Assembly (NCBI RefSeq): GCF_003018115.1
Contig: NZ_CP027457.1
Source of the DNA: Escherichia coli
Lineage (GTDB): Bacteria > Pseudomonadota > Gammaproteobacteria > Enterobacterales > Enterobacteriaceae
DNA length: 64,000 nucleotides
Strand: one strand, 5' to 3'
Shown: piece after piece, positions 14,698-35,832 of the stretch
How the letters are laid out: every line of letters starts with the position of its first letter
Numbering within the stretch: the stretch's first letter is position 1
Notes under the pieces: model-generated
Told to the model about the DNA's origin: nothing
The model's database searches: none
Seen by the model: only the letters and a program-made list of their open reading frames with translations
Program-made: the position numbers and the translations under genes

Positions 14698-16397
14698 GCC
14701 AGAGAATTACTATTGATCCGGTAACCCGTATTGAGGGGCATTTACGCATCGATTGCGAAATCGAAAATGGCGTCGTTTCGAAAGCATGGGCTTCCGGTAC
14801 CATGTGGCGCGGCATGGAAGAGATCGTGAAAAACCGCGATCCGCGCGATGCATGGATGATTGTGCAACGTATCTGTGGCGTATGTACTACCACTCACGCG
14901 CTGTCTTCCGTTCGTGCGGCAGAAAGTGCGCTGAATATCGACGTTCCGGTTAACGCGCAATACATCCGTAACATCATTCTGGCTGCGCACACCACGCATG
15001 ACCATATCGTTCATTTCTATCAGCTTTCGGCGCTGGACTGGGTGGACATCACTTCTGCACTGCAAGCTGACCCAACCAAAGCCTCCGAAATGCTGAAAGG
15101 CGTTTCGACCTGGCATCTGAACAGTCCGGAAGAGTTCACCAAAGTTCAGAACAAGATCAAAGATCTGGTTGCCAGCGGTCAGTTGGGCATTTTCGCCAAC
15201 GGCTACTGGGGTCATCCGGCGATGAAACTGCCGCCGGAAGTGAACCTGATTGCGGTAGCGCACTACCTGCAGGCGCTGGAGTGCCAGCGTGACGCTAACC
15301 GCGTCGTGGCACTGCTGGGCGGTAAAACGCCGCACATTCAGAACCTGGCGGTAGGTGGGGTCGCTAACCCGATCAACCTCGACGGTCTGGGCGTGCTGAA
15401 CCTTGAGCGCCTGATGTACATCAAGTCTTTCATCGACAAGCTGAGCGACTTTGTTGAACAGGTTTATAAGGTTGATACCGCGGTTATCGCCGCGTTCTAC
15501 CCGGAATGGCTGACGCGCGGTAAAGGTGCGGTGAACTACCTGAGCGTGCCGGAATTCCCGACCGACAGCAAAAACGGCAGCTTCCTGTTCCCGGGCGGCT
15601 ACATTGAGAATGCGGATCTGTCCTCGTATCGTCCGATCACTTCTCATTCCGATGAATACCTGATCAAAGGCATTCAGGAAAGCGCGAAGCACTCCTGGTA
15701 TAAAGACGAAGCGCCGCAGGCACCGTGGGAAGGTACCACCATTCCGGCTTACGACGGTTGGTCTGACGACGGTAAATATTCCTGGGTGAAATCGCCGACT
15801 TTCTACGGCAAAACGGTAGAAGTGGGTCCGCTGGCTAATATGCTGGTGAAACTGGCGGCAGGTCGCGAATCTACCCAGAACAAACTGAATGAAATCGTTG
15901 CGATTTATCAGAAACTGACTGGCAACACGCTGGAAGTGGCACAGCTGCACTCCACGCTGGGCCGTATTATTGGTCGTACCGTTCACTGCTGTGAATTGCA
16001 GGATATCCTGCAAAACCAATACAGTGCACTGATCACCAATATCGGCAAAGGCGATCACACCACCTTTGTGAAGCCGAACATTCCGGCAACGGGTGAGTTC
16101 AAAGGTGTTGGCTTCCTCGAAGCGCCGCGCGGTATGCTCTCTCACTGGATGGTTATTAAAGACGGTATCATCAGCAACTACCAGGCGGTTGTTCCATCAA
16201 CCTGGAACTCTGGTCCGCGTAACTTCAATGATGACGTCGGTCCTTACGAGCAGTCGCTGGTGGGTACACCGGTTGCCGATCCGAATAAACCGCTGGAAGT
16301 GGTGCGTACCATTCACTCCTTCGACCCGTGCATGGCCTGTGCGGTACACGTAGTGGATGCTGACGGCAACGAAGTGGTTTCAGTGAAGGTTCTGTAA
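14694..16397 (+). CDS. hybC: hydrogenase 2 large [NiFe] subunit
   Basis: 567 aa; N-terminal RICGVCTTTH and C-terminal DPCMACAVH Ni-Fe ligand motifs. Confidence 0.96.
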   Translation: MSQRITIDPVTRIEGHLRIDCEIENGVVSKAWASGTMWRGMEEIVKNRDPRDAWMIVQRICGVCTTTHALSSVRAAESALNIDVPVNAQYIRNIILAAHTTHDHIVHFYQLSALDWVDITSALQADPTKASEMLKGVSTWHLNSPEEFTKVQNKIKDLVASGQLGIFANGYWGHPAMKLPPEVNLIAVAHYLQALECQRDANRVVALLGGKTPHIQNLAVGGVANPINLDGLGVLNLERLMYIKSFIDKLSDFVEQVYKVDTAVIAAFYPEWLTRGKGAVNYLSVPEFPTDSKNGSFLFPGGYIENADLSSYRPITSHSDEYLIKGIQESAKHSWYKDEAPQAPWEGTTIPAYDGWSDDGKYSWVKSPTFYGKTVEVGPLANMLVKLAAGRESTQNKLNEIVAIYQKLTGNTLEVAQLHSTLGRIIGRTVHCCELQDILQNQYSALITNIGKGDHTTFVKPNIPATGEFKGVGFLEAPRGMLSHWMVIKDGIISNYQAVVPSTWNSGPRNFNDDVGPYEQSLVGTPVADPNKPLEVVRTIHSFDPCMACAVHVVDADGNEVVSVKVL

Positions 16398-22858: not shown

Positions 22859-23551
22859 CTAGTGATAACCACGCGCGGTCATAAAATCCGTAATCGCTTT
22901 TTCTGCATCAACCAACACCTGTTCCAGTGGCTGATTGGCATCGATATCAACCAGTTGTGCACCACCAAAGGTTAACTGTGGCGTTATGGCAATCTTCCTC
23001 GCCAGCGATTCCCGTTTATGGTCGGGTTTACGCGCGCAGGCCACGTCTAGATCGACATTGAGTTTGATGACCAGATCAGGCTTATGGCTCGCCATCCAGT
23101 GAAACGCTTTACGTTCCTGGCTTGCCAGCCATGAGACAAAACGACCACCTTCAACGTTAGGTGGGAACACCGTACCATCGTAAGCGCCAGGAATTTGGTC
23201 CTGAGGATAACGGTCGGTTAGAACAATTAACCCGCGACGACGACAGGCAAGCATATGACGAAAGCGCAGTAAGCGACGGGCGACAAACGCTGTAATTACC
23301 AGCGCCGGAACTGGTCCTGGCAATTTTTTTGCTGTTTTCACCTGATTTCGTTCAATTGTTTTATGTAAGGATTTTCCCATCAACGGTAATTTTGTCACTG
23401 CACGACCGACATTTCCGGCTTGTTTTCCTAAATGAACTCTTTCGGCAGCACCATATTTTTCGACAACGGTAATGAGATGTTCACACACCGTTGACTTGCC
23501 AGAACCATCGCTACCAATAACGGCAATTAATGGAGGTGTTATTGACTGCAT
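22859..23551 (-). CDS. yghT: P-loop NTPase/kinase-like protein (YghR/S/T paralog family)
   Basis: 230 aa; Walker [10 protein letters not shown]; DRYPQ motif; paralogous to the two downstream ORFs. Confidence 0.85.
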
Positions 23552-23724: not shown

Positions 23725-24438
23725 GTGAATCAACGTAATATGTCAATAATTAATTCCACGCCAGTGCGTGTTATTGCCATTGTAGGATGTGATGGTTCAG
23801 GTAAATCGACCCTCACGGCAAGCCTGGTAAATGAACTGGCAGCAAGAATGCCAACAGAACGCATTTATCTCGGGCAATCGTCCGGGCGAATTGGCGAATG
23901 GATTTCACAGCTCCCTGTTATTGGCGCACCTTTTGGGCGTTATCTGCGAAGTAAAGCGGCACATGTGCACGAAAAGCCCTCAACACCGCCTGGCAATATT
24001 ACTGCGCTGGTTATCTATCTGCTTTTCTGCTGGCGGGCGTACAAGTTTCGCAAAATGTTGTGTAGAAGCCAGCAAGGCCATCTGCTCATCACCGACCGCT
24101 ACCCGCAGGTTGAAGTGCCGGGTTTTCGCTTTGATGGCCCGCAATTGGCAAAAACCACGGGCGGTAACGGTTGGATAAAAATGTTAAGGCAGCGCGAGTT
24201 GAAGCTGTACCAATGGATGGCGTCTTATTTACCCGTATTGTTGATTCGTCTTGGCATTGATGAACAAACCGCGTTTGCGCGTAAACCTGACCACCAACTG
24301 GCAGCGTTACAGGAAAAAATCGCCGTTACGCCGCAATTGACATTCAATGGCGCAAAGATCCTTGAACTGGATGGTCGGCAACCAGCCGATGAAATTCTGC
24401 AAGCGTCACTACGCGCAATTCACGCCGCGCTTTCCTGA
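23725..24438 (+). CDS. yghS: P-loop NTPase/kinase-like protein (YghR/S/T paralog family)
   Basis: 237 aa from GTG start (alternative ATG at 23740); Walker A GCDGSGKST; DRYPQ; ARKPDH motif shared with paralogs. Confidence 0.85.
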   Translation: MNQRNMSIINSTPVRVIAIVGCDGSGKSTLTASLVNELAARMPTERIYLGQSSGRIGEWISQLPVIGAPFGRYLRSKAAHVHEKPSTPPGNITALVIYLLFCWRAYKFRKMLCRSQQGHLLITDRYPQVEVPGFRFDGPQLAKTTGGNGWIKMLRQRELKLYQWMASYLPVLLIRLGIDEQTAFARKPDHQLAALQEKIAVTPQLTFNGAKILELDGRQPADEILQASLRAIHAALS

Positions 24439-24469: not shown

Positions 24470-25228
24470 ATGGATGCACTACAAACACAAACTGTTATTA
24501 GTACAACCGCGCCACAGCCCAACTACATTCCGGGGCTGATTGCGGTGGTCGGGTGTGATGGCACCGGTAAATCCACACTGACCACCGACCTAGTGAAATC
24601 GCTGCAACAACACTGGCAAACCGAGCGGCGCTATCTGGGGCTGCTCTCCGGCGAAGACGGCGACAAAATCAAACGATTGCCGTTGGTTGGCGTCTGGCTG
24701 GAACGGCGACTGGCGGCCAAATCCTCGAAAACCCAAAGCATGAAAACCAAATCTCCGGCGCTATGGGCGGCGGTGATTATGTACTGCTTCTCGCTGCGAA
24801 GAATGGCGAATCTACGCAAGGTTCAGCGACTGGCGCAAAGTGGCGTTCTGGTGGTCAGCGATCGCTTCCCGCAGGCTGAAATTTCGGGCTTTTATTATGA
24901 CGGACCGGGGATTGGCGTCGAACGTGCGACCGGGAAAATCAGCATGTTTCTGGCGCAGCGCGAACGGCGTTTATACCAACAAATGGCGCAATATCGCCCG
25001 GAATTAATTATTCGCCTGGGCATTGATATTGAGACTGCCATCTCCCGCAAGCCTGACCATGACTATGCCGAGCTGCAGGACAAAATCGGCGTCATGTCGA
25101 CGATTGGCTATAACGGCACAAAAATTCTTGAGATTGATTCCAGAGCGCCCTACAGCGAAGTGCTGGAACAGGCACAGAAGGCGGTTTCTCTGGTTGCCAT
25201 CGCTTCTGACCGCCGAAGTTTAACTTAA
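24470..25228 (+). CDS. yghR: P-loop NTPase/kinase-like protein (YghR/S/T paralog family)
   Basis: 252 aa; Walker A GCDGTGKST; DRFPQ; SRKPDH. Confidence 0.85.
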   Translation: MDALQTQTVISTTAPQPNYIPGLIAVVGCDGTGKSTLTTDLVKSLQQHWQTERRYLGLLSGEDGDKIKRLPLVGVWLERRLAAKSSKTQSMKTKSPALWAAVIMYCFSLRRMANLRKVQRLAQSGVLVVSDRFPQAEISGFYYDGPGIGVERATGKISMFLAQRERRLYQQMAQYRPELIIRLGIDIETAISRKPDHDYAELQDKIGVMSTIGYNGTKILEIDSRAPYSEVLEQAQKAVSLVAIASDRRSLT

Positions 25229-25273: not shown

Positions 25274-26623
25274 TTGGCGGGTTTTAACATCAAACATTGG
25301 TTTGCAGATGGCGCGTTTCGCACCATTATTCGCAATAGCGCCTGGTTAGGCTCCAGTAATGTCGTGAGCGCCTTGCTGGGGCTGTTGGCGCTCTCGTGTG
25401 CCGGTAAAGGGATGACGCCCGCCATGTTTGGCGTACTGGTGATTGTGCAATCGTACGCCAAGTCGATCAGCGATTTTATTAAGTTTCAGACATGGCAGCT
25501 GGTGGTTCAGTACGGAACGCCAGCCTTGACCAACAATAATCCGCAGCAATTTCGCAATGTCGTCTCATTTTCCTTCTCGCTGGATATCGTCAGCGGCGCG
25601 GTGGCGATTGTCGGCGGCATTGCCTTACTGCCATTCCTTTCCCATTCATTAGGTCTGGATGACCAAAGCTTTTGGCTGGCGGCGCTGTATTGCACGCTCA
25701 TTCCTTCAATGGCTTCCTCCACGCCGACCGGCATTCTGCGTGCGGTAGATCGCTTTGATTTGATTGCTGTACAGCAGGCGACGAAACCTTTTCTGCGCGC
25801 AGCGGGGAGCGTCGCAGCCTGGTATTTTGACTTTGGTTTTGCGGGTTTTGTTATTGCCTGGTACGTGTCGAATCTGGTTGGCGGCACCATGTACTGGTGG
25901 TTTGCCGCGCGCGAATTACGCCGCAGAAATATCCATAACGCCTTCAAATTGAATCTGTTTGAGTCTGCCCGACACATTAAAGGCGCGTGGAGTTTTGTCT
26001 GGTCAACCAACATTGCCCACTCCATCTGGTCGGCGCGTAACTCGTGCAGCACAGTGTTGGTGGGGATCGTGTTAGGACCCGCTGCCGCCGGGTTATTTAA
26101 AATCGCCATGACATTCTTCGACGCCGCCGGAACGCCAGCGGGTTTGCTGGGTAAAAGTTTTTACCCAGAGGTGATGCGTTTAGATCCGCGCACCACCAGA
26201 CCGTGGTTGTTAGGCGTGAAGTCCGGTTTACTGGCGGGCGGAATCGGTATTCTGGTGGCGCTCGCGGTGTTGATCGTCGGCAAGCCGCTCATTTCGCTGG
26301 TATTTGGCGTTAAGTATCTCGAAGCGTATGACCTGATTCAGGTGATGCTGGGCGCAATTGTGATCTCGATGCTGGGCTTCCCGCAGGAGTCATTGCTATT
26401 GATGGCGGGAAAACAGCGCGCTTTTCTCGTGGCGCAAACCATCGCCTCAATCGGCTACATCGTATTGCTGTTCATGTTCTGTCATCTGTTTGGCGTGCTG
26501 GGGGCTGCATTTGCTTACTTCGTTGGGCAATGTCTGGATGTGGTGCTCTCGTTAATTCCAACCTTAAAGGCATTTTTTCAGCGCCATTCCTTGCTTTATA
26601 ACGCAGCCGGAGAGAAATCCTGA
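25274..26623 (+). CDS. yghQ: MOP/Wzx-like polytopic membrane flippase-family protein
   Basis: 449-codon hydrophobic ORF from TTG at 25274 (true start may be the internal Met at about 25412); recognised as YghQ-like; stop overlaps the next ORF start (ATGA). Confidence 0.8.
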   Translation: MAGFNIKHWFADGAFRTIIRNSAWLGSSNVVSALLGLLALSCAGKGMTPAMFGVLVIVQSYAKSISDFIKFQTWQLVVQYGTPALTNNNPQQFRNVVSFSFSLDIVSGAVAIVGGIALLPFLSHSLGLDDQSFWLAALYCTLIPSMASSTPTGILRAVDRFDLIAVQQATKPFLRAAGSVAAWYFDFGFAGFVIAWYVSNLVGGTMYWWFAARELRRRNIHNAFKLNLFESARHIKGAWSFVWSTNIAHSIWSARNSCSTVLVGIVLGPAAAGLFKIAMTFFDAAGTPAGLLGKSFYPEVMRLDPRTTRPWLLGVKSGLLAGGIGILVALAVLIVGKPLISLVFGVKYLEAYDLIQVMLGAIVISMLGFPQESLLLMAGKQRAFLVAQTIASIGYIVLLFMFCHLFGVLGAAFAYFVGQCLDVVLSLIPTLKAFFQRHSLLYNAAGEKS

Positions 26624-27447
26624 TGATGAGAAAATATTTCCCGCTTGAGGCGAGCGAGCGTCTATTTGTTGCGATTGAAGAAGATGATGTCGTTGATGCA
26701 CAGGTTAGTTTGCCGCCGACTATTGCACTAAGTTGTACCACCGAAATCATTCATGATAATTACGCGTTATGCCTGCAATTCTGGCTCAATGGCGTTAATC
26801 GTCAGGAATTACTGCGTTTAGTTCGCAAACAAGCCAAAGGCGATGAGCTGACTGCTGATGAGCGCAAACAATTTAAATACATGCGAGCGCGCTACAAGCA
26901 CCTGCGTTTTGCGCAACGGCTGTATTTAAAGAAGCATCAGGCCGGATTTTTATTCGGCAAAACGACCGTTTTTCTGGGACGTTTTCAGGACGGATTTCGT
27001 AACGGTAAGAAAAATATTGTGTCGTATTACGGCAACCTGTTACGAATTTATTTAAGCTCTCCGGTCTGGTCGTTGGTGAACTATTCATTACGCCATAGCC
27101 AGTTAGAAAGCGTAAGCGGTTTTATTGCCTATCGGCAAAAGCAAATGCATACCCTGAAAGAGATTATTGCCAAACCGCGACTAACCGGCAGGGAATTTCA
27201 TGATGTGCGAAAAATCATCAGCCAGCAGGTTTCTTATTACGACACCTTAAGATCGCTTGATCCTGAAAATAAAGAGGCGTTACAGATTTCCCGTTTCCTC
27301 GCCGCCATTAATGGCCTGATGGGGGATAAACACGACGACATGGTAGCGGATGATATGGAAAACCGCCAGTCGTATGATGCACCGGTGGCGCTGGATAGCG
27401 ATATTCGCCAGCGCTTAGAGCTGCTGATTTCGCGTTTTCCGCTATAA
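26623..27447 (+). CDS. hypothetical protein, basic, no recognisable motif
   Basis: 274-aa ORF translationally coupled to yghQ (ATGA overlap); no signal peptide or TM segment apparent. Confidence 0.6.
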   Translation: MMRKYFPLEASERLFVAIEEDDVVDAQVSLPPTIALSCTTEIIHDNYALCLQFWLNGVNRQELLRLVRKQAKGDELTADERKQFKYMRARYKHLRFAQRLYLKKHQAGFLFGKTTVFLGRFQDGFRNGKKNIVSYYGNLLRIYLSSPVWSLVNYSLRHSQLESVSGFIAYRQKQMHTLKEIIAKPRLTGREFHDVRKIISQQVSYYDTLRSLDPENKEALQISRFLAAINGLMGDKHDDMVADDMENRQSYDAPVALDSDIRQRLELLISRFPL

Positions 27448-27455
27448 CCGGAGCA

Positions 27456-28019
27456 ATGATGTCATCTCGTTTGATTATTGCGCTGATTATCATGCTCTTA
27501 GCCCCGGGTGTGCAGGCACACAATTTCGTCACTGGCAAAACGGTTACCCCTGTTTATATTCAGGAAGGCGGCGAGCTGCTTCTGAATAGCGACGACGAAA
27601 TTCACTACCAAAAGTGGAACAGCACACAATTGGCGGGAAAAGTCCGCATTATCCAGTATATCGCCGGGCGTAAGTCGGCGAAGAAAAAGAACTCACTGTT
27701 AATTAAAGCGGTTGAAGCGGCAAACTTTCCGCAGGATCGTTTTCAGCCCACCACCATTGTGAACACCGATGATGCCATCTTTGGTACTGGCTATTTTGTT
27801 GTTGGCAAAATCGAAAAAAATAAACGCCGCTATCCGTGGGCGCAATTCGTTATCGACGGCAATGGACAGGGACGCGTTGCCTGGCGCTTGCCGGAGCAGA
27901 GTTCAACCATTCTGGTGCTGGATAAAGCCGGGCAAATTCAGTGGGCAAAGGACGGCAGCCTGACGCCGGAAGAGGTAGATCATGTCATTGCGCTGGCGCA
28001 GAAACTGATCAATGAATAA
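27456..28019 (+). CDS. secreted/periplasmic protein, YtfJ-family-like
   Basis: 187 aa; N-terminal signal peptide (MMSSRLIIALIIMLLAPGVQA/HN); resembles E. coli YtfJ as recalled (TTIVNTDDAI...YPW..F..D.NG, QWAKDG.LTPEEV). Confidence 0.6.
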   Translation: MMSSRLIIALIIMLLAPGVQAHNFVTGKTVTPVYIQEGGELLLNSDDEIHYQKWNSTQLAGKVRIIQYIAGRKSAKKKNSLLIKAVEAANFPQDRFQPTTIVNTDDAIFGTGYFVVGKIEKNKRRYPWAQFVIDGNGQGRVAWRLPEQSSTILVLDKAGQIQWAKDGSLTPEEVDHVIALAQKLINE

Positions 28020-28049
28020 AAAATTCAAAGGATTGAGGGCGTTAGTGAG

Positions 28050-29120
28050 ATGAAGCTGGTTGAACACTACATCATGCGTGGTACGCGCCGTCTGGTGCTG
28101 ATTATCGTCGGTTTTCTGATCTTTATTTTCGCCAGCTACTCCGCACAGCGTTATCTGACCGAAGCGGCAAATGGGACATTAGCTCTTGATGTTGTGCTGG
28201 ATATCGTTTTCTACAAAGTGCTGATTGCACTGGAGATGTTGTTACCTGTTGGTCTGTATGTGTCAGTTGGCGTGACGCTAGGGCAGATGTATACCGACTC
28301 GGAAATTACCGCTATCTCTGCGGCGGGGGGCAGTCCGGGACGCTTGTACAAAGCCGTTCTTTATCTGGCGATACCGCTAAGTATTTTTGTCACCCTTCTG
28401 TCGATGTATGGTCGTCCGTGGGCTTATGCGCAGATTTATCAACTGGAGCAGCAGTCGCAGTCGGAGCTGGATGTTCGCCAGTTGCGGGCAAAGAAATTTA
28501 ACACTAACGATAACGGACGAATGATCCTTTCGCAGACGGTTGATCAGGATAATAATCGCCTGACTGACGCGCTGATTTATACTTCTACTGCCAATCGAAC
28601 CCGCATTTTCCGCGCCCGTTCGGTTGATGTGGTTGACCCATCACCCGAGAAACCGACCGTTATGTTGCACAACGGCACTGCCTATCTTCTCGATCATCAG
28701 GGTCGTGACGACAACGAACAGATCTACCGTAATCTGCAATTACATCTGAATCCGCTGGATCAAAGCCCTAACGTCAAACGCAAAGCAAAATCGGTCACGG
28801 AGCTGGCGCGCTCCGCCTTTCCTGCCGATCATGCCGAACTGCAATGGCGACAAAGCCGTGGCCTGACAGCATTGTTGATGGCGCTGCTGGCCATTTCATT
28901 AAGTCGGGTAAAACCGCGGCAGGGGCGATTTTCAACGTTATTGCCACTGACGTTGCTGTTTATTGCCATTTTTTATGGCGGCGACGTCTGCCGTACGCTG
29001 GTGGCTAACGGCGCGATTCCTCTCATTCCTGGTTTGTGGTTAGTGCCCGGACTCATGCTAATGGGCCTGCTGATGCTGGTTGCACGCGACTTCACTTTGC
29101 TGCAGAAATTTTCCCGATGA
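28050..29120 (+). CDS. LptF-like permease (YjgP/YjgQ family)
   Basis: 356 aa; N-terminal TM bundle then soluble domain then C-terminal TMs; LGQMYTDSEITAISAAG matches the LptF signature region as recalled (LGKLYTESEITVMHACG). Confidence 0.75.
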   Translation: MKLVEHYIMRGTRRLVLIIVGFLIFIFASYSAQRYLTEAANGTLALDVVLDIVFYKVLIALEMLLPVGLYVSVGVTLGQMYTDSEITAISAAGGSPGRLYKAVLYLAIPLSIFVTLLSMYGRPWAYAQIYQLEQQSQSELDVRQLRAKKFNTNDNGRMILSQTVDQDNNRLTDALIYTSTANRTRIFRARSVDVVDPSPEKPTVMLHNGTAYLLDHQGRDDNEQIYRNLQLHLNPLDQSPNVKRKAKSVTELARSAFPADHAELQWRQSRGLTALLMALLAISLSRVKPRQGRFSTLLPLTLLFIAIFYGGDVCRTLVANGAIPLIPGLWLVPGLMLMGLLMLVARDFTLLQKFSR

Positions 29121-30196
29121 ATGTTTTCAGTCGCTATTTAATCCGTCATCTCTTTCTCGGTTTTGCCGCCGCCGCAGGGCTATTGCTGCCGCTTTTTACC
29201 ACCTTCAACCTGATTAACGAACTGGATGATGTCAGCCCGGGCGGTTATCGCTGGACTCAGGCGGTGCTGGTGGTGCTAATGACCTTACCGCGCACACTGG
29301 TCGAACTTTCGCCGTTTATCGCCTTATTGGGAGGGATTGTCGGCCTGGGGCAGTTATCGAAAAACAGTGAGCTTACCGCCATTCGCAGCATGGGGTTTTC
29401 TATCTTCCGTATTGCACTGGTGGCGCTGGTTGCCGGGATATTGTGGACTGTTTCGTTAGGCGCGATAGATGAGTGGGTAGCGTCGCCGTTGCAGCAACAG
29501 GCGCTGCAAATCAAATCGACCGCCACTGCGTTGGGGGAGGACGATGATATTACCGGCAATATGCTTTGGGCCAGGCGCGGTAATGAATTTGTAACGGTGA
29601 AATCGCTGAACGAGCAGGGCCAGCCGGTGGGCGTGGAGATATTTCATTATCGCGACGATCTCTCGCTCGAATCCTACATTTATGCACGCAGTGCCACCAT
29701 TGAAGACGACAAAACGTGGATCCTGCATGGTGTGAATCATAAAAAATGGCTGAATGGCAAAGAAACGCTGGAAACATTAGATAATCTTGCCTGGCAATCG
29801 GCCTTCACCAGTATGGATCTTGAAGAGTTATCAATGCCGGGCAATACTTTTTCTGTCCGTCAGCTTAATCATTACATCCATTATTTGCAGGAAACCGGGC
29901 AACCCAGCAGCGAATACCGCCTTGCACTGTGGGAAAAACTGGGGCAACCCATCCTGACCCTGGCGATGATTTTGCTGGCTGTGCCGTTTACCTTTAGTGC
30001 CCCGCGCTCGCCAGGGATGGGTAGCCGTCTCGCTGTAGGTGTCATCGTTGGCTTACTCACCTGGATCAGCTATCAAATCATGGTCAATCTGGGATTGCTA
30101 TTTGCGTTGAGCGCACCTGTTACCGCGCTCGGTTTACCGATAGCGTTTGTGCTGGTGGCGTTGAGCCTGGTGTATTGGTATGACAGACAACATTAA
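29117..30196 (+). CDS. LptG-like permease (YjgP/YjgQ family)
   Basis: 359 aa from ATG at 29117 (MNVFSRYLIRH...), overlapping upstream stop by 4 nt; NSELTAIRSMGFS resembles LptG RSELVVMQASGF. Confidence 0.75.
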   Translation: MNVFSRYLIRHLFLGFAAAAGLLLPLFTTFNLINELDDVSPGGYRWTQAVLVVLMTLPRTLVELSPFIALLGGIVGLGQLSKNSELTAIRSMGFSIFRIALVALVAGILWTVSLGAIDEWVASPLQQQALQIKSTATALGEDDDITGNMLWARRGNEFVTVKSLNEQGQPVGVEIFHYRDDLSLESYIYARSATIEDDKTWILHGVNHKKWLNGKETLETLDNLAWQSAFTSMDLEELSMPGNTFSVRQLNHYIHYLQETGQPSSEYRLALWEKLGQPILTLAMILLAVPFTFSAPRSPGMGSRLAVGVIVGLLTWISYQIMVNLGLLFALSAPVTALGLPIAFVLVALSLVYWYDRQH

Positions 30197-30230
30197 ACCC
30201 GCCGTGGCGCAACACCACAGCGGGCTCACA

Positions 30231-31403
30231 TTACTGCTTCAGAGTAGCGAACGCTTGAATGATGGCATCAATTTGCTCACGACTGTGGGCAGCGTTTACG
30301 CTACAGCGCAGCAGCGTGATGCCTGCAGGCGCGGCAGGTGGCAGGATAAGATTCACATAAACGCCCAGCGAAATAAGCTCGCGCCAGATGCGTAAACCTT
30401 CCTCTTTCGAACCGATTATTACCGGCACTACCGGGCTAATATGTGAACTTAACTCATAACCCAGTTTTTGCAGACCGTCATACAGATGGTTGGCGTTATC
30501 CATCAGCTTTTGCCGCAGCTCTGGTTGTGTGGCAATGGTTCTTAACGACGAGCGCACGGTCGCAATGCAGGACGGAGAAGGAGAGGCGGTAAAAATATAC
30601 GGGCGGCTGCCGTAGCGCAGCACTTCCATCGCTTCCGAACCGACAGCAAAACCGCCAATCGAGGCCAGACTTTTACTGAAGGTACCAACGATAATATCCA
30701 CATCATCTTCAACGCCAACGGCTTCAGCCAGTCCGCGCCCCGTTGCGCCTAACACGCCAAACGAATGCGCTTCATCGACAATCAAATAACCACCGAGACG
30801 ACGTTTGATATCAACAATTTCCGCCAGCGGCGCAACGTCACCGAGCATGCTGTAGATGCCCTCAACGATGATAATCGCCTCTTTCGCCCGTTCACCGAGG
30901 CGAACCATGCGCCGTTCCAGATCTTTAGCATCGTTATGGCGGAAACGAATAATTTCCGCGCCACCGAGAGAACAGGCGTCATAAATACTGGCGTGGCTGT
31001 CGGCATCCAGTAACACCACGGCGTTATGGTCGGCAAGTGCGCTGATGACGCCTAAATTAGCGGTATAACCGGTTGAAAAAACGATAGCGGTAGGGCGATT
31101 GAAAAACTCGGCAATCTCTTTCTCTAACGCCAGGTGCGGCGCATAACTGCCGTTTGCCATACGAGAACCGGTGGTGCCGGTGCCTTGGGCCGCTAACGCT
31201 GTCTGACCTTCGGCGATGGCATCATGATTAAAGGTTAAACCGAGGTAATTATTGGTCCCGGCCAGAATCACTTTTTTATTGCCGATCCGGCCTTCGGTGG
31301 CGGAATACACTTCATCAATACAGGTGCCAAACGGTGTTAACCCATTGTCACTAAATTGCAGTCGCTCGCCAGCAAGGCGCGCATATTTATCATATAGCCC
31401 CAT
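30231..31403 (-). CDS. alpha-oxoamine synthase family PLP enzyme, serine palmitoyltransferase-like
   Basis: 390 aa; class-II aminotransferase fold with PLP-lysine motif GTFSKSLASIGGF; encoded immediately downstream of a dedicated ACP. Confidence 0.8.
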   Translation of the reverse strand: MGLYDKYARLAGERLQFSDNGLTPFGTCIDEVYSATEGRIGNKKVILAGTNNYLGLTFNHDAIAEGQTALAAQGTGTTGSRMANGSYAPHLALEKEIAEFFNRPTAIVFSTGYTANLGVISALADHNAVVLLDADSHASIYDACSLGGAEIIRFRHNDAKDLERRMVRLGERAKEAIIIVEGIYSMLGDVAPLAEIVDIKRRLGGYLIVDEAHSFGVLGATGRGLAEAVGVEDDVDIIVGTFSKSLASIGGFAVGSEAMEVLRYGSRPYIFTASPSPSCIATVRSSLRTIATQPELRQKLMDNANHLYDGLQKLGYELSSHISPVVPVIIGSKEEGLRIWRELISLGVYVNLILPPAAPAGITLLRCSVNAAHSREQIDAIIQAFATLKQ

Positions 31404-31651
31404 TATTTATTCTCCAGCCATGGAAGTAGAGTTTCCATTAATTGCGCAGGGGTTTTGACATCCAGCAGAATATTAATAGGAATGGAAATATCGAATCTGT
31501 CTTCCAGCATCATTAAGAGATCCATCACTTTGATCGACTCCAGGCCAAGATCGTTGACGAGATCGCTGTCGGGCTTAATTTCCACACCGTTTTCGACCAA
31601 ATCCTGTAAACAGGAAAGGATGTAATCCATTACTATTTCACGATTTACCAT
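31403..31651 (-). CDS. acyl carrier protein
   Basis: 82 aa, acidic; phosphopantetheine-site motif DLGLESI; shares a boundary nucleotide with the downstream synthase gene. Confidence 0.75.
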   Translation of the reverse strand: MVNREIVMDYILSCLQDLVENGVEIKPDSDLVNDLGLESIKVMDLLMMLEDRFDISIPINILLDVKTPAQLMETLLPWLENK

Positions 31652-31682
31652 AGAAACGTTAACACACCTTTAAACAAGACAA

Positions 31683-32597
31683 TCAAAATAGCCCGTTGCG
31701 TAATGCGTGTTCCAGGCTAATCCCGGGAAACCAATTAATATCTTCAGAAATACGGTTATTACTTGCCGACCAGTCGGCGTGGGTTAATTCACGAATTTTC
31801 GAGCGGGTCAGCATAGGTTCTTTACCTGCCAGGCGGCTCAACGCGGTACTGATATCCGCAAGGCAGGTGAGTACCGGCAGAGGAATGCCAACCATTCGCA
31901 CGGAACCACAACGGGCGTCGGCGGCAAGTTGCTGTACGCGTTGCCAGTCATAGCCGCCAGCGACGCCATCGCATAATTCATAGGTTTGCGTCTGTACAGT
32001 TTCGGCGCTTAACCACTGACCCACTGCTTGCGCGAAATCGGTGACGTGCAGGAAAGAGAGCTGTGTATCTGGCGCACCAAGTCGTGGCAGCAGGCCGCGC
32101 AGCATCCAGTCAAACAGCGGTTTTAACTCTTTATCGCCGGGGCCATACACGGCTGTCGGGCGAAAAACGCCCAGCGTAATTTTGTCAGCCATTGCAGTCA
32201 GCCGTTGTTCGGCGACGTATTTGGAATTTGCGTACCAGGAGAGTTCGGGATGGCGCGCCGCCAGCGAAGAGATAAACAGAAAACGTTGGCAAAAACCGCT
32301 CTCTTTTGCCGCCTGCATCAGGCGCAGACTGCCGTCAACGTTACAGCGGGTGAAAATCTCTTCTTTGTGCCCGCGCACTTGTCCGGCGCAATGAACCACC
32401 GCGCTGGCTCCGGCAACCAGTTCGCTAAGCGAATGTGTATCTTCCAGCGAACCGCGCACCCAGGTGAGATTATCATTGACGTGAGCGCGGGCAGTACGCG
32501 TCAATGCGCGAACGTGAAAGCCGCGGGCGAGCAGGTTATTGATAATATATTTACCGATAAACCCGGTAGCGCCCGTCACCGCGACAGTTTGATTCAT
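31683..32597 (-). CDS. NAD(P)-dependent epimerase/dehydratase-family SDR (candidate keto-reductase)
   Basis: 304 aa; N-terminal Rossmann motif VTGATGFIGK; start overlaps stop of upstream acyl-ACP synthetase (ATGA). Confidence 0.8.
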   Translation of the reverse strand: MNQTVAVTGATGFIGKYIINNLLARGFHVRALTRTARAHVNDNLTWVRGSLEDTHSLSELVAGASAVVHCAGQVRGHKEEIFTRCNVDGSLRLMQAAKESGFCQRFLFISSLAARHPELSWYANSKYVAEQRLTAMADKITLGVFRPTAVYGPGDKELKPLFDWMLRGLLPRLGAPDTQLSFLHVTDFAQAVGQWLSAETVQTQTYELCDGVAGGYDWQRVQQLAADARCGSVRMVGIPLPVLTCLADISTALSRLAGKEPMLTRSKIRELTHADWSASNNRISEDINWFPGISLEHALRNGLF

Positions 32598-34327
32598 GCC
32601 AGGGATTCCTGCACATGAAGGCTTGCAGCATAAGCCTTCTGATAACGTTTTTTCGCTTCCGCACGGGCAGGCTTGCCGGAGGACGTTCGGGGAATGCTGT
32701 GGGGCGGCAACAGATCGATAGCCGCGGTCACGCCAAATTCGCTTTGGATCCGTGCTGCCAGCGCGTGGATAAGCTGCCCGCGACGTTCTTCATCGCTGAT
32801 CCGACACTGGATCTGCAAAATGATTTTTTCCTGGGCGGTAACAAAAGCAATCGCATCGCCAGAATGAATTTCCGGTTCCTGTTCCGCTATATATTCAATA
32901 TCCTGCGGCCAGATATTACGGCCACGAATAATAATCAGATCTTTAATGCGTCCGGTGACATACAGATAACCGTCCAGCAGATAACCGAGGTCGCCAGTGT
33001 CTAACCAGCCCGTCGCGGCAATCTCGTCTTGCGAAGCCTGGTCGCCAAAGTAACCGCTCATCAGACTGGGACCGGAGATGCAAATATGGCCTACCACACG
33101 TTCCGCGACCGGCATACCTGCTTCATTGCGGATTTCAATACCATGTTCCGGCAACGCTTTGCCGCAGTTGACGAAAGTCGATACGGCGCGTGTCTCTGCA
33201 CCCGGCGCGACGGCTTTACCCTGATATTCGAGGATGTCGCGATCCACTTCGTTAACCACAACCCCGGAGGCTTCATCAGAGAAGCTGACAGCCAGCGCAT
33301 TTTCTGCCAGTCCGTAGCACGGCATGAAAGTTTTATTGTCAAAGTTAACCTGACGGAAACATTCAGCGAATTGATGGAGTTGTTCTGCGGAGATGGGTTC
33401 TGCACCAATACCAGCGACGCGCCAGCAGGAAAGATCCAGTTCAGCGAGATCTTTTTCATTCACGCGGCGCTGGCACAATTCATAGCCAAACGGCGGCGCA
33501 ACGGAAACGGTGCCGCGATTTTTACTGATCAATTTAAGCCATTGCAGAGGACGCATGGCAAAATCCTGAGTGCGCAAATAATCTACTGAAAGTTGCGTGG
33601 CGACGGGGGTCAGGAGAAAGCCGACCAGTCCCATATCATGGTAGAAAGGCAGCCAGGAGACGCAGCGGTCGCCAGGGCGTAATTTAATGCCATCGTGGCT
33701 TATGGCGCGTAGATTAGCCATCACTTCGCGGTGAGTGATAATGACGCCACGGGGAAAACGGGTGCTGCCGGAGGTGTACTGGAGGTAGGCGATATCGTTC
33801 GGAACTGGACGCTGGAGCGCAACATCGGCTTCCGGTAATGCCTTAAACCAGGCGTGGCTTAAAACATGTAATTCGGGGTTGTTGTTATGCGTCGCGGCAT
33901 TGACCAGCGGTAACCACTCATCACCAGTGATAATGGCTGCGGGCTGGCAACTTGCCAGTAAACCCTGCAGTTTGGCGCTCCAGGAATCCCGCTGACCGAC
34001 GCCCATTGGAATCGCCAATGGTACGGCAACTAATCCAGCATACTGACAGGCAAAAAATGCCTCGACAAACCCGCTACTGGTTTCGGCAATCAGCGCCACG
34101 CGATCGCCTTTTTTCAGGTTTAGCGATAACAACCGCTTCGCACCAGCTTCGGCACGCGCTTTTAACGTCTGATATTCCAGTTGATCTTCAAGTTGGCAAC
34201 GTCTGTCATAAAAATTCATTCCAGCGCTACTCAGAGCGGCGTAGTCCAAAGCATCAACCAGCGTTGGAAAATCGGCATAGCGCATAGGTAGGGAATGCGT
34301 AAAGATTTTATTAGACATATACACCAC
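32594..34327 (-). CDS. fatty acyl-AMP ligase / acyl-ACP synthetase (adenylate-forming enzyme)
   Basis: 577 aa; AMP-binding core motif YTSGSTRFPRGV and downstream GYG/TGD adenylation motifs; first gene of a 4-gene minus-strand operon. Confidence 0.8.
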   Translation of the reverse strand: MVYMSNKIFTHSLPMRYADFPTLVDALDYAALSSAGMNFYDRRCQLEDQLEYQTLKARAEAGAKRLLSLNLKKGDRVALIAETSSGFVEAFFACQYAGLVAVPLAIPMGVGQRDSWSAKLQGLLASCQPAAIITGDEWLPLVNAATHNNNPELHVLSHAWFKALPEADVALQRPVPNDIAYLQYTSGSTRFPRGVIITHREVMANLRAISHDGIKLRPGDRCVSWLPFYHDMGLVGFLLTPVATQLSVDYLRTQDFAMRPLQWLKLISKNRGTVSVAPPFGYELCQRRVNEKDLAELDLSCWRVAGIGAEPISAEQLHQFAECFRQVNFDNKTFMPCYGLAENALAVSFSDEASGVVVNEVDRDILEYQGKAVAPGAETRAVSTFVNCGKALPEHGIEIRNEAGMPVAERVVGHICISGPSLMSGYFGDQASQDEIAATGWLDTGDLGYLLDGYLYVTGRIKDLIIIRGRNIWPQDIEYIAEQEPEIHSGDAIAFVTAQEKIILQIQCRISDEERRGQLIHALAARIQSEFGVTAAIDLLPPHSIPRTSSGKPARAEAKKRYQKAYAASLHVQESLA

Positions 34328-34689
34328 GAAAAAATTGGATATCCAAAATAAAATGACAATAATGCGGTGGATTATATAGGCATAAAAGATAAATGAGATA
34401 GTATTTTCATCAGTGTGAAAATGAACATTGATTTAAATAATGAGTTTAAGTTTTTTTGTTTTTATTGTGAATGATATTTAATTTATGAATATATTAAGAA
34501 GAAGCCTTGTCCGGTCGCCTTAAATCGACAAAAGGCATTGTGGCGCTTCTGTGTAGTCGCTGACCTTATCGTAATCATTAATAAATACTATTTATTCGTC
34601 GTTTGTATTCATTGGGTTGATTATTAAGGTGCCGTTCGTTGCTGTTGCAACCTGTTTGTCACCGTTAATTATTTGTTACCCACAGAACT
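34328..34689. promoter_or_regulatory. AT-rich divergent control region (lipid operon / yghO)
   Basis: 362-bp intergenic region of markedly low GC between divergently oriented genes. Confidence 0.45.
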
Positions 34690-35832
34690 ATGGAATGCGA
34701 TCTGCTGATGATTAAAATTGAAAAAGTAATAAATAAAAACGACTTAAAGGCATTTATCGCTTTTCCGTCATCACTTTATCCCGACGATCCAAACTGGATA
34801 CCCCCTTTATTCATTGAACGCAACGAGCATTTGTCTGCGAAAAATCCGGGGACGGACCATATCATCTGGCAGGCGTGGGTGGCAAAAAAAGCGGGGCAGA
34901 TAGTTGGGCGTATTACCGCGCAAATAGATACCTTGCACCGCGAGCGTTACGGCAAAGATACCGGTCATTTCGGCATGATTGACGCCATTGATGATCCGCA
35001 GGTTTTTGCCGCGTTGTTTGGCGCAGCGGAAGCGTGGTTGAAGTCCCAAGGTGCAAGTAAGATCAGCGGTCCTTTCAGCCTGAATATCAATCAGGAAAGC
35101 GGATTACTGATTGAAGGTTTTGACACACCACCCTGTGCGATGATGCCACACGGCAAACCGTGGTATGCCGCGCATATTGAACAACTGGGTTATCACAAAG
35201 GCATTGATTTACTGGCGTGGTGGATGCAGCGAACCGATCTCACTTTCTCTCCGGCGCTAAAAAAACTGATGGATCAGGTGCGCAAAAAGGTGACCATTCG
35301 CTGCATCAATCGCCAGCGGTTTGCCGAAGAGATGCAGATCCTGCGTGAGATTTTCAACTCTGGCTGGCAACACAACTGGGGATTTGTGCCGTTTACCGAA
35401 CATGAATTCGCGACCATGGGCGATCAACTTAAATATCTGGTGCCGGACGATATGATCTACATCGCTGAGATTGATTCTGCACCCTGCGCGTTTATTGTCG
35501 GCTTGCCGAACATCAACGAGGCGATTGCCGATCTGAACGGATCGCTCTTTCCCTTCGGCTGGGCAAAATTGCTGTGGCGTTTGAAAGTCAGCGGTGTGCG
35601 AACTGCGCGAGTACCGCTGATGGGCGTGCGCGACGAGTATCAGTTCAGCCGCATCGGCCCGGTGATTGCGCTGTTATTGATTGAAGCCTTACGCGATCCG
35701 TTTGCCCGCCGGAAGATCGATGCGCTGGAGATGTCATGGATCCTCGAAACCAATACAGGCATGAATAACATGCTGGAACGCATTGGGGCGGAGCCGTACA
35801 AGCGTTACCGATTGTATGAAAAGCAGATTTAA
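34690..35832 (+). CDS. yghO: GNAT-superfamily-like acyltransferase (full-length YghO)
   Basis: 380-codon ORF (start possibly at internal Met, 34708); position corresponds to yghO next to glcC; acyltransferase assignment is tentative. Confidence 0.65.
   Translation: MECDLLMIKIEKVINKNDLKAFIAFPSSLYPDDPNWIPPLFIERNEHLSAKNPGTDHIIWQAWVAKKAGQIVGRITAQIDTLHRERYGKDTGHFGMIDAIDDPQVFAALFGAAEAWLKSQGASKISGPFSLNINQESGLLIEGFDTPPCAMMPHGKPWYAAHIEQLGYHKGIDLLAWWMQRTDLTFSPALKKLMDQVRKKVTIRCINRQRFAEEMQILREIFNSGWQHNWGFVPFTEHEFATMGDQLKYLVPDDMIYIAEIDSAPCAFIVGLPNINEAIADLNGSLFPFGWAKLLWRLKVSGVRTARVPLMGVRDEYQFSRIGPVIALLLIEALRDPFARRKIDALEMSWILETNTGMNNMLERIGAEPYKRYRLYEKQI

Follow-up and report, generated by a model that had tools for sequence, protein, structure and literature searches.

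The window analysed here, a stretch of 64,000 nucleotides of Escherichia coli DNA (RefSeq assembly GCF_003018115.1, contig NZ_CP027457.1) from a strain closest to enterotoxigenic E. coli (ETEC) isolates of serotype O169:H41, carries at positions 30231–35832 a set of five genes, spt, acpR, cerR, aasR and yghO. These genes can be assigned with high confidence to the proteobacterial dihydroceramide pathway, of which they form the E. coli version, intact in this strain. They probably belong to a functional unit larger than these five genes, comprising thirteen genes between positions 22859 and 35832. The five genes and the region from which aasR and yghO diverge are arranged in the window as follows:

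30231–31403, minus strand: spt, serine palmitoyltransferase, a pyridoxal phosphate (PLP)-dependent alpha-oxoamine synthase of 390 aa, assigned by profile, structure and Caulobacter match
31403–31651, minus strand: acpR, dedicated acyl carrier protein (ACP) of 82 aa, with ACP profile hits and the motif DLGLESI
31683–32597, minus strand: cerR, predicted keto-reductase of the extended short-chain dehydrogenase/reductase type (epimerase/dehydratase family), 304 aa, assigned by motifs and by its match to Caulobacter CerR
32594–34285, minus strand: aasR, acyl-AcpR synthetase of the fatty acyl-AMP ligase type, assigned by the model NF006624; a GTG at 34327 is an alternative start
34328–34689, no strand: divergent intergenic region between aasR and yghO, 362 bp with 31.5% G+C, putative control region
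34690–35832, plus strand: yghO, predicted homolog of bCerS/Aca with a tandem-GNAT fold, 380 aa, assigned by structure model and published orthology

The five open reading frames (ORFs) are all open and intact, and they lie where a sequence-only reading of the same DNA had placed them. That reading had described the junctions between the minus-strand genes as ATGA-type overlaps, a description that holds for aasR/cerR, but not for the rest of the operon: the stop codon of acpR and the start codon of spt share the sequence TAATG, with an overlap of 1 nt, and a gap of 31 nt lies between cerR and acpR. It had also extended aasR to the GTG at 34327, whereas the start annotated in RefSeq is the ATG at 34285. 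The G+C content of the window at this locus (49–55%) is typical of E. coli.

Identities of the enzymes and prior description of the locus

The product of spt passes the NCBI curated equivalog model for serine palmitoyltransferase (SPT), NF047599, with 600 bits (cut-off 500). The enzymes BioF, Kbl, CqsA and ALAS share with Spt the same fold and PLP chemistry, and their profiles give significant hits, all of which stay below the curated cut-offs (334 vs 426 bits for BioF, 297 vs 460 for Kbl, 220 vs 428 for the CqsA-type model, and 220 vs 339 for ALAS). With every one of these models under its cut-off and the SPT model passed, the four identities were rejected for the 390-aa synthase. The nearest solved structure is the SPT of Sphingomonas paucimobilis (2JG2, E 8e-112), followed by Kbl (1e-59) and BioF (1e-50), and in this respect too the SPT assignment made in the sequence-only reading has been borne out. 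The Sphingomonas enzyme can be aligned over residues 3–385, and the motifs GTFSKS (residue 240, with the PLP lysine), DEAHS (residue 210), DSHASI (residue 135) and LLRCS (residue 364) line up, with conservation in E. coli Spt of the catalytic lysine, histidines, aspartate and arginine. Both proteins lack a membrane anchor, unlike the eukaryotic enzyme. The genetic context of the two differs, since aasR is located far from acpR–spt in the genomes of the Sphingomonadaceae and beside them in E. coli.

The proteins were also compared with those encoded in a 4.7-kb stretch of Caulobacter vibrioides, located by means of a published cpgB primer, which spans CerR, AcpR, Spt, a CC_1161-like ORF and CpgB, and leaves out bCerS, LptF2/G2 and most of AasR. 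Spt is 53.7% identical to Caulobacter Spt over 389 aa, AcpR is 41% identical to its counterpart over 51 aa, and AasR shows 42% identity over the last 36 residues, the only part of this protein that was compared. For CerR, an identity of 33.3% over 288 aa (E 4e-35) was obtained, and the Caulobacter protein is a reciprocal best hit within the window; these values agree with those published for CC_1164 and the E. coli BL21(DE3) protein ECD_02852 (34% identity, 7e-38; Table S2 of PMC9386255). When Caulobacter Spt and CerR were used as queries, spt and cerR were the sole significant matches in the window.

Sequence features are in line with these assignments. AcpR, in addition to its hits on ACP profiles, holds in the motif DLGLESI (at residue 34) a modifiable serine, whose absence would have counted against the pathway according to the sequence-only reading, and the identical protein from BL21 is known to carry 4'-phosphopantetheine. 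CerR exhibits the motifs GATGFIG at residue 9 and YANSK at residue 122 (GxxGxxG and YxxxK, respectively), which suggest that the E. coli protein would act as a keto-reductase. Finally, AasR scores 868 bits on the fatty acyl-AMP ligase model NF006624 (cut-off 600), and its YTSGST motif is found at residue 170 of the 563-aa form.

The novelty implied in the sequence-only reading is gone, because the locus has already been published and annotated for E. coli. Padilla-Gómez et al. (2022; PMC9386255) described it in BL21(DE3), where the genes were named ECD_02850 (yghO/aca), ECD_02851 (aasR), ECD_02852 (epi), ECD_02853 (acpR) and ECD_02854 (spt), and noted its presence also in ETEC B7A. More recently, a 2026 preprint on Caulobacter LptF2/G2 has drawn the sphingolipid operons of E. 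coli UTI89 (Figure 2B), and the label 'spt: serine palmitoyltransferase' is already used by RefSeq in thousands of genomes. The genetic potential of E. coli for a sphingolipid is therefore part of the literature. The BL21(DE3) genes sit at the same chromosomal position, flanked by glcC and yghQ, with the same order and orientation as in the window, and the proteins are 97.7–100% identical (Spt 99.2% to ECD_02854, AcpR 100% to ECD_02853, and AasR 98.6% to ECD_02851). The differences are allelic: each enzyme has 3 to 8 amino-acid substitutions, and aasR differs in length by one codon.

The biochemical evidence comes from the same study (PMC9386255), in which the AasR and Spt steps were shown in vitro as well as in E. 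coli hosts used for expression, with BL21 proteins 98.6–100% identical to those of the window. It was demonstrated that E. coli AcpR bears 4'-phosphopantetheine, that it is acylated by E. coli AasR, and that E. coli Spt yields 3-oxo-sphinganine, with preference for acyl-AcpR over acyl-CoA. In particular, BL21 Spt converted L-[14C]serine and palmitoyl-AcpR into a product that co-migrates with 3-oxo-sphinganine.

These results bear directly on the possibility, which is extremely improbable, that the product of the synthase is another amino-ketone lipid (e.g., a CqsA-like signal, a cysteate-derived sulfonolipid precursor, or a 1-deoxy base formed from glycine or alanine). This enzyme family is promiscuous, a cysteate-C-fatty acyltransferase (28EH, E 2e-59) appears among the solved relatives of Spt, and SPTs are reported to use alanine and glycine with low efficiency (PMC10196870). 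Nevertheless, the BL21 enzyme for which the use of L-serine has been demonstrated is 99.2% identical to that of the window, and both the degree of identity to Caulobacter Spt (53.7%) and the outcome of the curated models, where the SPT equivalog was passed and the cut-offs of BioF, Kbl, CqsA and ALAS were failed, point to a serine palmitoyltransferase.

YghO and the proposed dihydroceramide pathway

YghO has no match in either Pfam or NCBIfam, and for this reason its assignment to the GNAT fold needed a structure model. The AlphaFold2 model obtained from 80 diverse homologs has a predicted local distance difference test score (pLDDT) of 96.4, and a Foldseek search against the PDB returned the tandem-GNAT proteins 2WPW (5e-16), 5KF1, 7Q3A and MshD, so that the 'GNAT-like' nature ascribed to YghO in the sequence-only reading is right at the fold level. 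In Caulobacter, the bacterial ceramide synthase bCerS (CC_1154) is needed for dihydroceramide synthesis, and YghO is predicted to be its homolog on the basis of the modelled fold, of synteny and of a published comparison between CC_1154 and ECD_02850 (44% identity, 1e-107, 98% coverage; PMC9386255). The RefSeq protein WP_001300526.1 represents YghO in BL21 and in a near-identical isolate, which equals the window throughout yghO. The names given to YghO homologs in databases conflict with one another, and include 'DNA-binding transcriptional regulator', 'dATP pyrophosphohydrolase' and 'N-acetyltransferase'.

A role of YghO outside the pathway, as an N-acetyltransferase of proteins or small molecules or as a regulator, would mean that E. 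coli stops at the long-chain base. Such a role would suit the lack of a Pfam or NCBIfam match and the conflicting names, as well as the separate transcription of yghO from the opposite strand and the fact that K-12 keeps most of this gene in spite of having lost the operon. It is, however, very improbable in view of the published similarity to CC_1154 and of the genetic context. The divergent pairing of yghO and aasR is kept in six genera of Enterobacterales, and a more distant relative, about 50% identical to YghO, is found in the same divergent yghO/aasR–cerR–acpR–spt architecture. Moreover, a deltaproteobacterial contig encodes a YghO homolog together with lptF/G paralogs and a DAGK_cat kinase, and one source annotation reads 'associated with Serine palmitoyltransferase'. 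Finally, the expression in BL21 of the three upstream genes originated spots that migrate like sphinganine and ceramide (PMC9386255).

According to the mechanism proposed for the dihydroceramide pathway, AasR adenylates a free long-chain fatty acid and loads it onto the phosphopantetheine arm of AcpR, and Spt then joins the resulting acyl-AcpR to L-serine in a decarboxylating condensation that yields 3-oxo-sphinganine, these being the steps shown with the BL21 proteins. By homology with Caulobacter genes that have been defined by genetics and biochemistry, YghO would add the N-acyl chain and CerR would reduce the 3-keto group, which would give rise to dihydroceramide. Whether acylation precedes reduction is a matter of dispute: one group has proposed a cytoplasmic acylation followed by a periplasmic reduction, and the other the eukaryotic order.

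Counterparts of the five ceramide genes, for yghO a predicted one, are found in Caulobacter crescentus in the region CC_1152–CC_1168 (ccna_01212–01226). The sequence-level tests uphold the likeness to the Caulobacter set (Spt, ACP, acyl-ACP synthetase and ceramide reductase, with a GNAT protein recognized by its modelled fold) that had been proposed in the sequence-only reading. Caulobacter demonstrably makes ceramide, glycosphingolipids and ceramide phosphoglycerates. The two loci differ in the genes that accompany these five. Caulobacter has CpgB, a ceramide kinase with a DAGK_cat domain, and CC_1161, while no homolog of either is encoded in the E. coli window, where the best tblastn match of CpgB and the CC_1161-like ORF over the 64 kb has an E value of 1.4. 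E. coli shows instead yghQ, an orphan gene for a protein of 274 aa, a ytfJ paralog and the P-loop trio yghRST. Because these Caulobacter genes have no homologs in the window, the locus of the Enterobacterales can be considered a distinct variant. A Caulobacter-type set for the head group, consisting of a DAGK_cat kinase, a Tam41-like protein and a CDP-alcohol phosphatidyltransferase beside lptF/G paralogs, does appear in two distant YghO contexts (L009 and L010).

Distribution, loss in K-12 and expression

Out of 5426 complete E. coli genomes, spt is present in 4092 (75%), and the 5.6-kb stretch is covered to at least 80% in 4068. The term 'accessory locus' used in the sequence-only reading therefore overstated its rarity. 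A recent horizontal acquisition was ruled out by the G+C content typical of E. coli, the fixed position between glcC and pitB, and the synteny with Hafnia.

In the K-12 strain MG1655, a copy of IS5 (IS5LO) is found in place of window positions 26343–34731 (8389 bp). This deletion takes aasR, cerR, acpR, spt, lptG2, lptF2, the ytfJ paralog and the gene for the 274-aa protein. It also truncates yghQ at its 3' end and deprives yghO of its first 42 nt. Most of yghO stays, and the N-terminus of K-12 YghO is read from IS5 sequence, so the 'YghO' of K-12 used in screens (e.g., the ASKA clone) is not the native protein. The IS5-associated deletion also accounts for the fact that the textbook strain shows no pathway, and the textbook E. 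coli membrane, made of three phospholipids and lipopolysaccharide (LPS), comes precisely from K-12, where the locus is deleted.

Where the locus is kept, it does not show signs of decay. When the window was compared with the divergent E. coli strain E1, the ratio of nonsynonymous to synonymous substitution rates (dN/dS) ranged from 0.047 to 0.095 for aasR, cerR, spt, yghO, lptF2, lptG2 and yghQ, and was 0.17 for the neighbouring glcC, which indicates that these seven genes of the locus are under purifying selection. A detailed comparison of three E. coli strains showed 13 out of 13 reading frames to be intact in each of them.

Several points weigh against a functional dihydroceramide pathway in E. 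coli. The activities of YghO and CerR are predicted by homology, YghO lacks a curated sequence profile, and the CpgB and CC_1161-like genes are missing from the window. K-12 is viable without the locus, extracts of BL21 with an empty vector formed no 3-oxo-sphinganine (PMC9386255), and a search of the literature, with incomplete coverage, found no paper in which unmodified E. coli is reported to produce a sphingolipid. In addition, the aasR gene of the near-identical ETEC isolate L7_E1373, intact in the window, exhibits a one-base nonsense change at the position equivalent to 33980 of the window and is annotated in RefSeq as a pseudogene with an internal stop (position 15750 of the isolate's stretch L001), from which it follows that individual losses occur.

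Many of these points could also be explained if the locus were a remnant, in which the enzymes work in vitro, the genes are permanently silent, no natural sphingolipid is made, and the cluster is slowly being lost. The productless BL21 extracts, the nonsense mutation in aasR and the lack of a reported E. coli sphingolipid would all be expected in that case, as would the loss of 8.4 kb by K-12 via IS5 with no known cost, the absence of spt from about a quarter of the complete genomes, and a control region that is as AT-rich (31.5% G+C) as those of silenced loci. This explanation is nonetheless unlikely. It is weakened by the dN/dS values of seven genes, which are low in the comparison of divergent E. 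coli lineages and do not exceed that of glcC, by the 13 reading frames that remain intact in the three strains, and by the maintenance of thirteen genes together across genera despite rearrangements (see below), a pattern not expected of neutral decay.

The genes of the locus appear to be silent in standard laboratory culture and are probably expressed only under particular conditions, as suggested by the productless extracts of empty-vector BL21 and by the low G+C content of the aasR/yghO intergenic region, which would fit silencing by nucleoid proteins. A regulatory role is predicted for this region (34328–34689), in which a scan for the sigma-70 consensus found 2 sites, compared to a mean of 3.0 in shuffled sequence, and a terminator scan performed no better than in shuffled sequence. 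Long A/T runs extend over 34330–34500, and the flanking genes have about 51% G+C.

Three quarters of the complete E. coli genomes, including those of ETEC, uropathogenic E. coli and BL21, thus keep a constrained ceramide pathway together with Lpt-like exporter genes. If the lipid is indeed made in the gut or during infection, a host-active class of lipids would be added to a major commensal and pathogen. Such a lipid could also alter the barrier of the outer membrane and the sensitivity to polymyxin, as in Caulobacter.

A probable larger unit of thirteen genes

The genes that probably complete the functional unit lie between 22859 and 30196:

22859–23551, minus strand: yghT, P-loop kinase-like paralog, clustered with yghS and yghR in Escherichia, Hafnia, Serratia and Rouxiella
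23725–24438, plus strand: yghS, P-loop kinase-like paralog, with P-loop matches
24470–25228, plus strand: yghR, P-loop kinase-like protein, with a Walker A and a DRF motif seen in the sequence
25274–26623, plus strand: yghQ, flippase-like membrane protein of the MOP/Polysacc_synt type, with a weak MOP flippase match
26623–27447, plus strand: orphan of 274 aa from Enterobacterales, directly after yghQ in six genera
27459–28019, plus strand: YtfJ-family paralog, 215 bits on TIGR01626 (cut-off 151)
28050–29120, plus strand: lptF2, LptF paralog and candidate sphingolipid exporter permease, 319 bits on TIGR04407
29117–30196, plus strand: lptG2, LptG paralog and partner of lptF2, 308 bits on TIGR04408

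The conservation of this unit was surveyed in Serratia, Pluralibacter, Hafnia, Sodalis and Rouxiella, in neighbourhoods entered through homologs of YghO and of the 274-aa orphan, onto which all 13 proteins of the window were mapped. The 13 genes were all found in the stretches from Hafnia and Rouxiella, and in the other three genera some of them lie beyond the stretch covered. The proteins are 60–84% identical across these genera. The order of the genes is not fixed: in Sodalis and Rouxiella, lptG2–lptF2 is inverted upstream of yghQ and yghRST are located beyond yghO, and in Serratia yghRST are placed between yghQ and spt. That the 13 genes stay clustered through such rearrangements is good evidence for a functional linkage. 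No paper linking the accessory genes found only in Enterobacterales to sphingolipids was found in the literature searched.

The gene lptF2 overlaps lptG2, which is convergent with spt. Their products pass the TIGRFAM models for LptF and LptG and align over their full length with the proteins of the solved LptB2FG complexes (6MHU, 6S8G and 6MIT), but their similarity to these E. coli and Shigella proteins is only 1e-25 to 1e-41 (about 1e-25 between LptF2 and the housekeeping LptF, and about 3e-41 between LptG2 and the solved LptG), and no ATPase gene is found alongside. Both genes are dispensable, as they are deleted in the viable K-12, and lptG2 is kept beside the locus in Enterobacterales as well as in distant taxa. 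RefSeq calls these copies 'LPS export ABC transporter permease LptF/LptG', which is probably a misnomer. The Caulobacter locus also holds lptF2/lptG2 paralogs, along with a putative flippase (CC_1166). In Caulobacter, LptF2/G2 is required when the sphingolipid is made and binds LptB, and LptC2 is restricted to this organism (2026 preprint). By analogy with Caulobacter and from synteny, LptF2/LptG2 would move the E. coli lipid towards the outer membrane with the housekeeping LptB and, perhaps, with YghQ as flippase. The orthologs of YghQ carry the domain PF01943, and yghQ is clustered with spt in every genus examined.

The 274-aa orphan has no match in Pfam, NCBIfam or PADLOC, and nearly all of its approximately 344 homologs come from Enterobacterales. 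Its structure model (pLDDT 91.8) is all-alpha, and the protein shows many invariant His, Arg and Lys residues. A fold search with this model gave nothing with E below 0.1, and only a weak likeness to CHAD proteins (6QV5, template modelling score 0.50, E 0.15; 3E0S, template modelling score 0.43), neither of them with a significant E value. One homolog is named in UniRef 'CHAD domain-containing protein', CHAD being a polyphosphate-binding domain. The YtfJ paralog is kept in the cluster in Pluralibacter, Hafnia and Sodalis, and partially in Rouxiella. It begins with an N-terminal hydrophobic stretch ending in VQA|HN (window 27456–27530), an apparent cleavable signal peptide, and would accordingly be a periplasmic component of a locus that lacks the LptC2 of Caulobacter.

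Regarding the P-loop proteins, the similarity of YghR, YghS and YghT to entries of NCBIfam, Pfam, PDB and PADLOC is limited to the P-loop. In RefSeq, yghS and yghT are called 'dTMP kinase', a name that is unsupported, since the model TIGR00041 has a cut-off of 83 bits and YghR reaches 32, with YghS and YghT at 22–25. A defence-system reading of the yghRST region was also rejected in view of the PADLOC search. YghR stays with the locus through the rearrangements, and homologs of YghS occur in the same genera as the hits of YghO and the 274-aa protein, often on the same contigs or with neighbouring locus tags.

A broader proposal, which is tentative and less probable than the assignment of the five genes, is that the majority of E. 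coli strains, along with many other Enterobacterales, produce an outer-membrane sphingolipid whose expression is conditional and which work on K-12 has missed through the IS5 deletion. This lipid would be matured and exported via YghR/S/T, the 274-aa orphan, the YtfJ paralog, YghQ and LptF2/G2, with the additional participation of a DgkA paralog in Serratia, Sodalis and Rouxiella, and would hold a head group unlike ceramide phosphoglycerate.

The DgkA-family gene (PF01219, 119–120 aa) is found just downstream of yghO in the three genera mentioned (Serratia, L004 11354–11716; Sodalis, L013 19667–20026; Rouxiella, L014 17950–18309), whereas this position is occupied in E. coli by glcC, with no DgkA paralog there. 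E. coli DgkA phosphorylates ceramide in vitro, which makes the paralog beside yghO a candidate ceramide kinase. In Hafnia paralvei (L012 19785–20513), the gene directly after yghO encodes a phosphopantetheinyl transferase (PF01648 with 4PPT_N), which could be a dedicated activator of AcpR. Pluralibacter also has a gene of this kind, at a distance of about 9 kb (L006 19819–20400).

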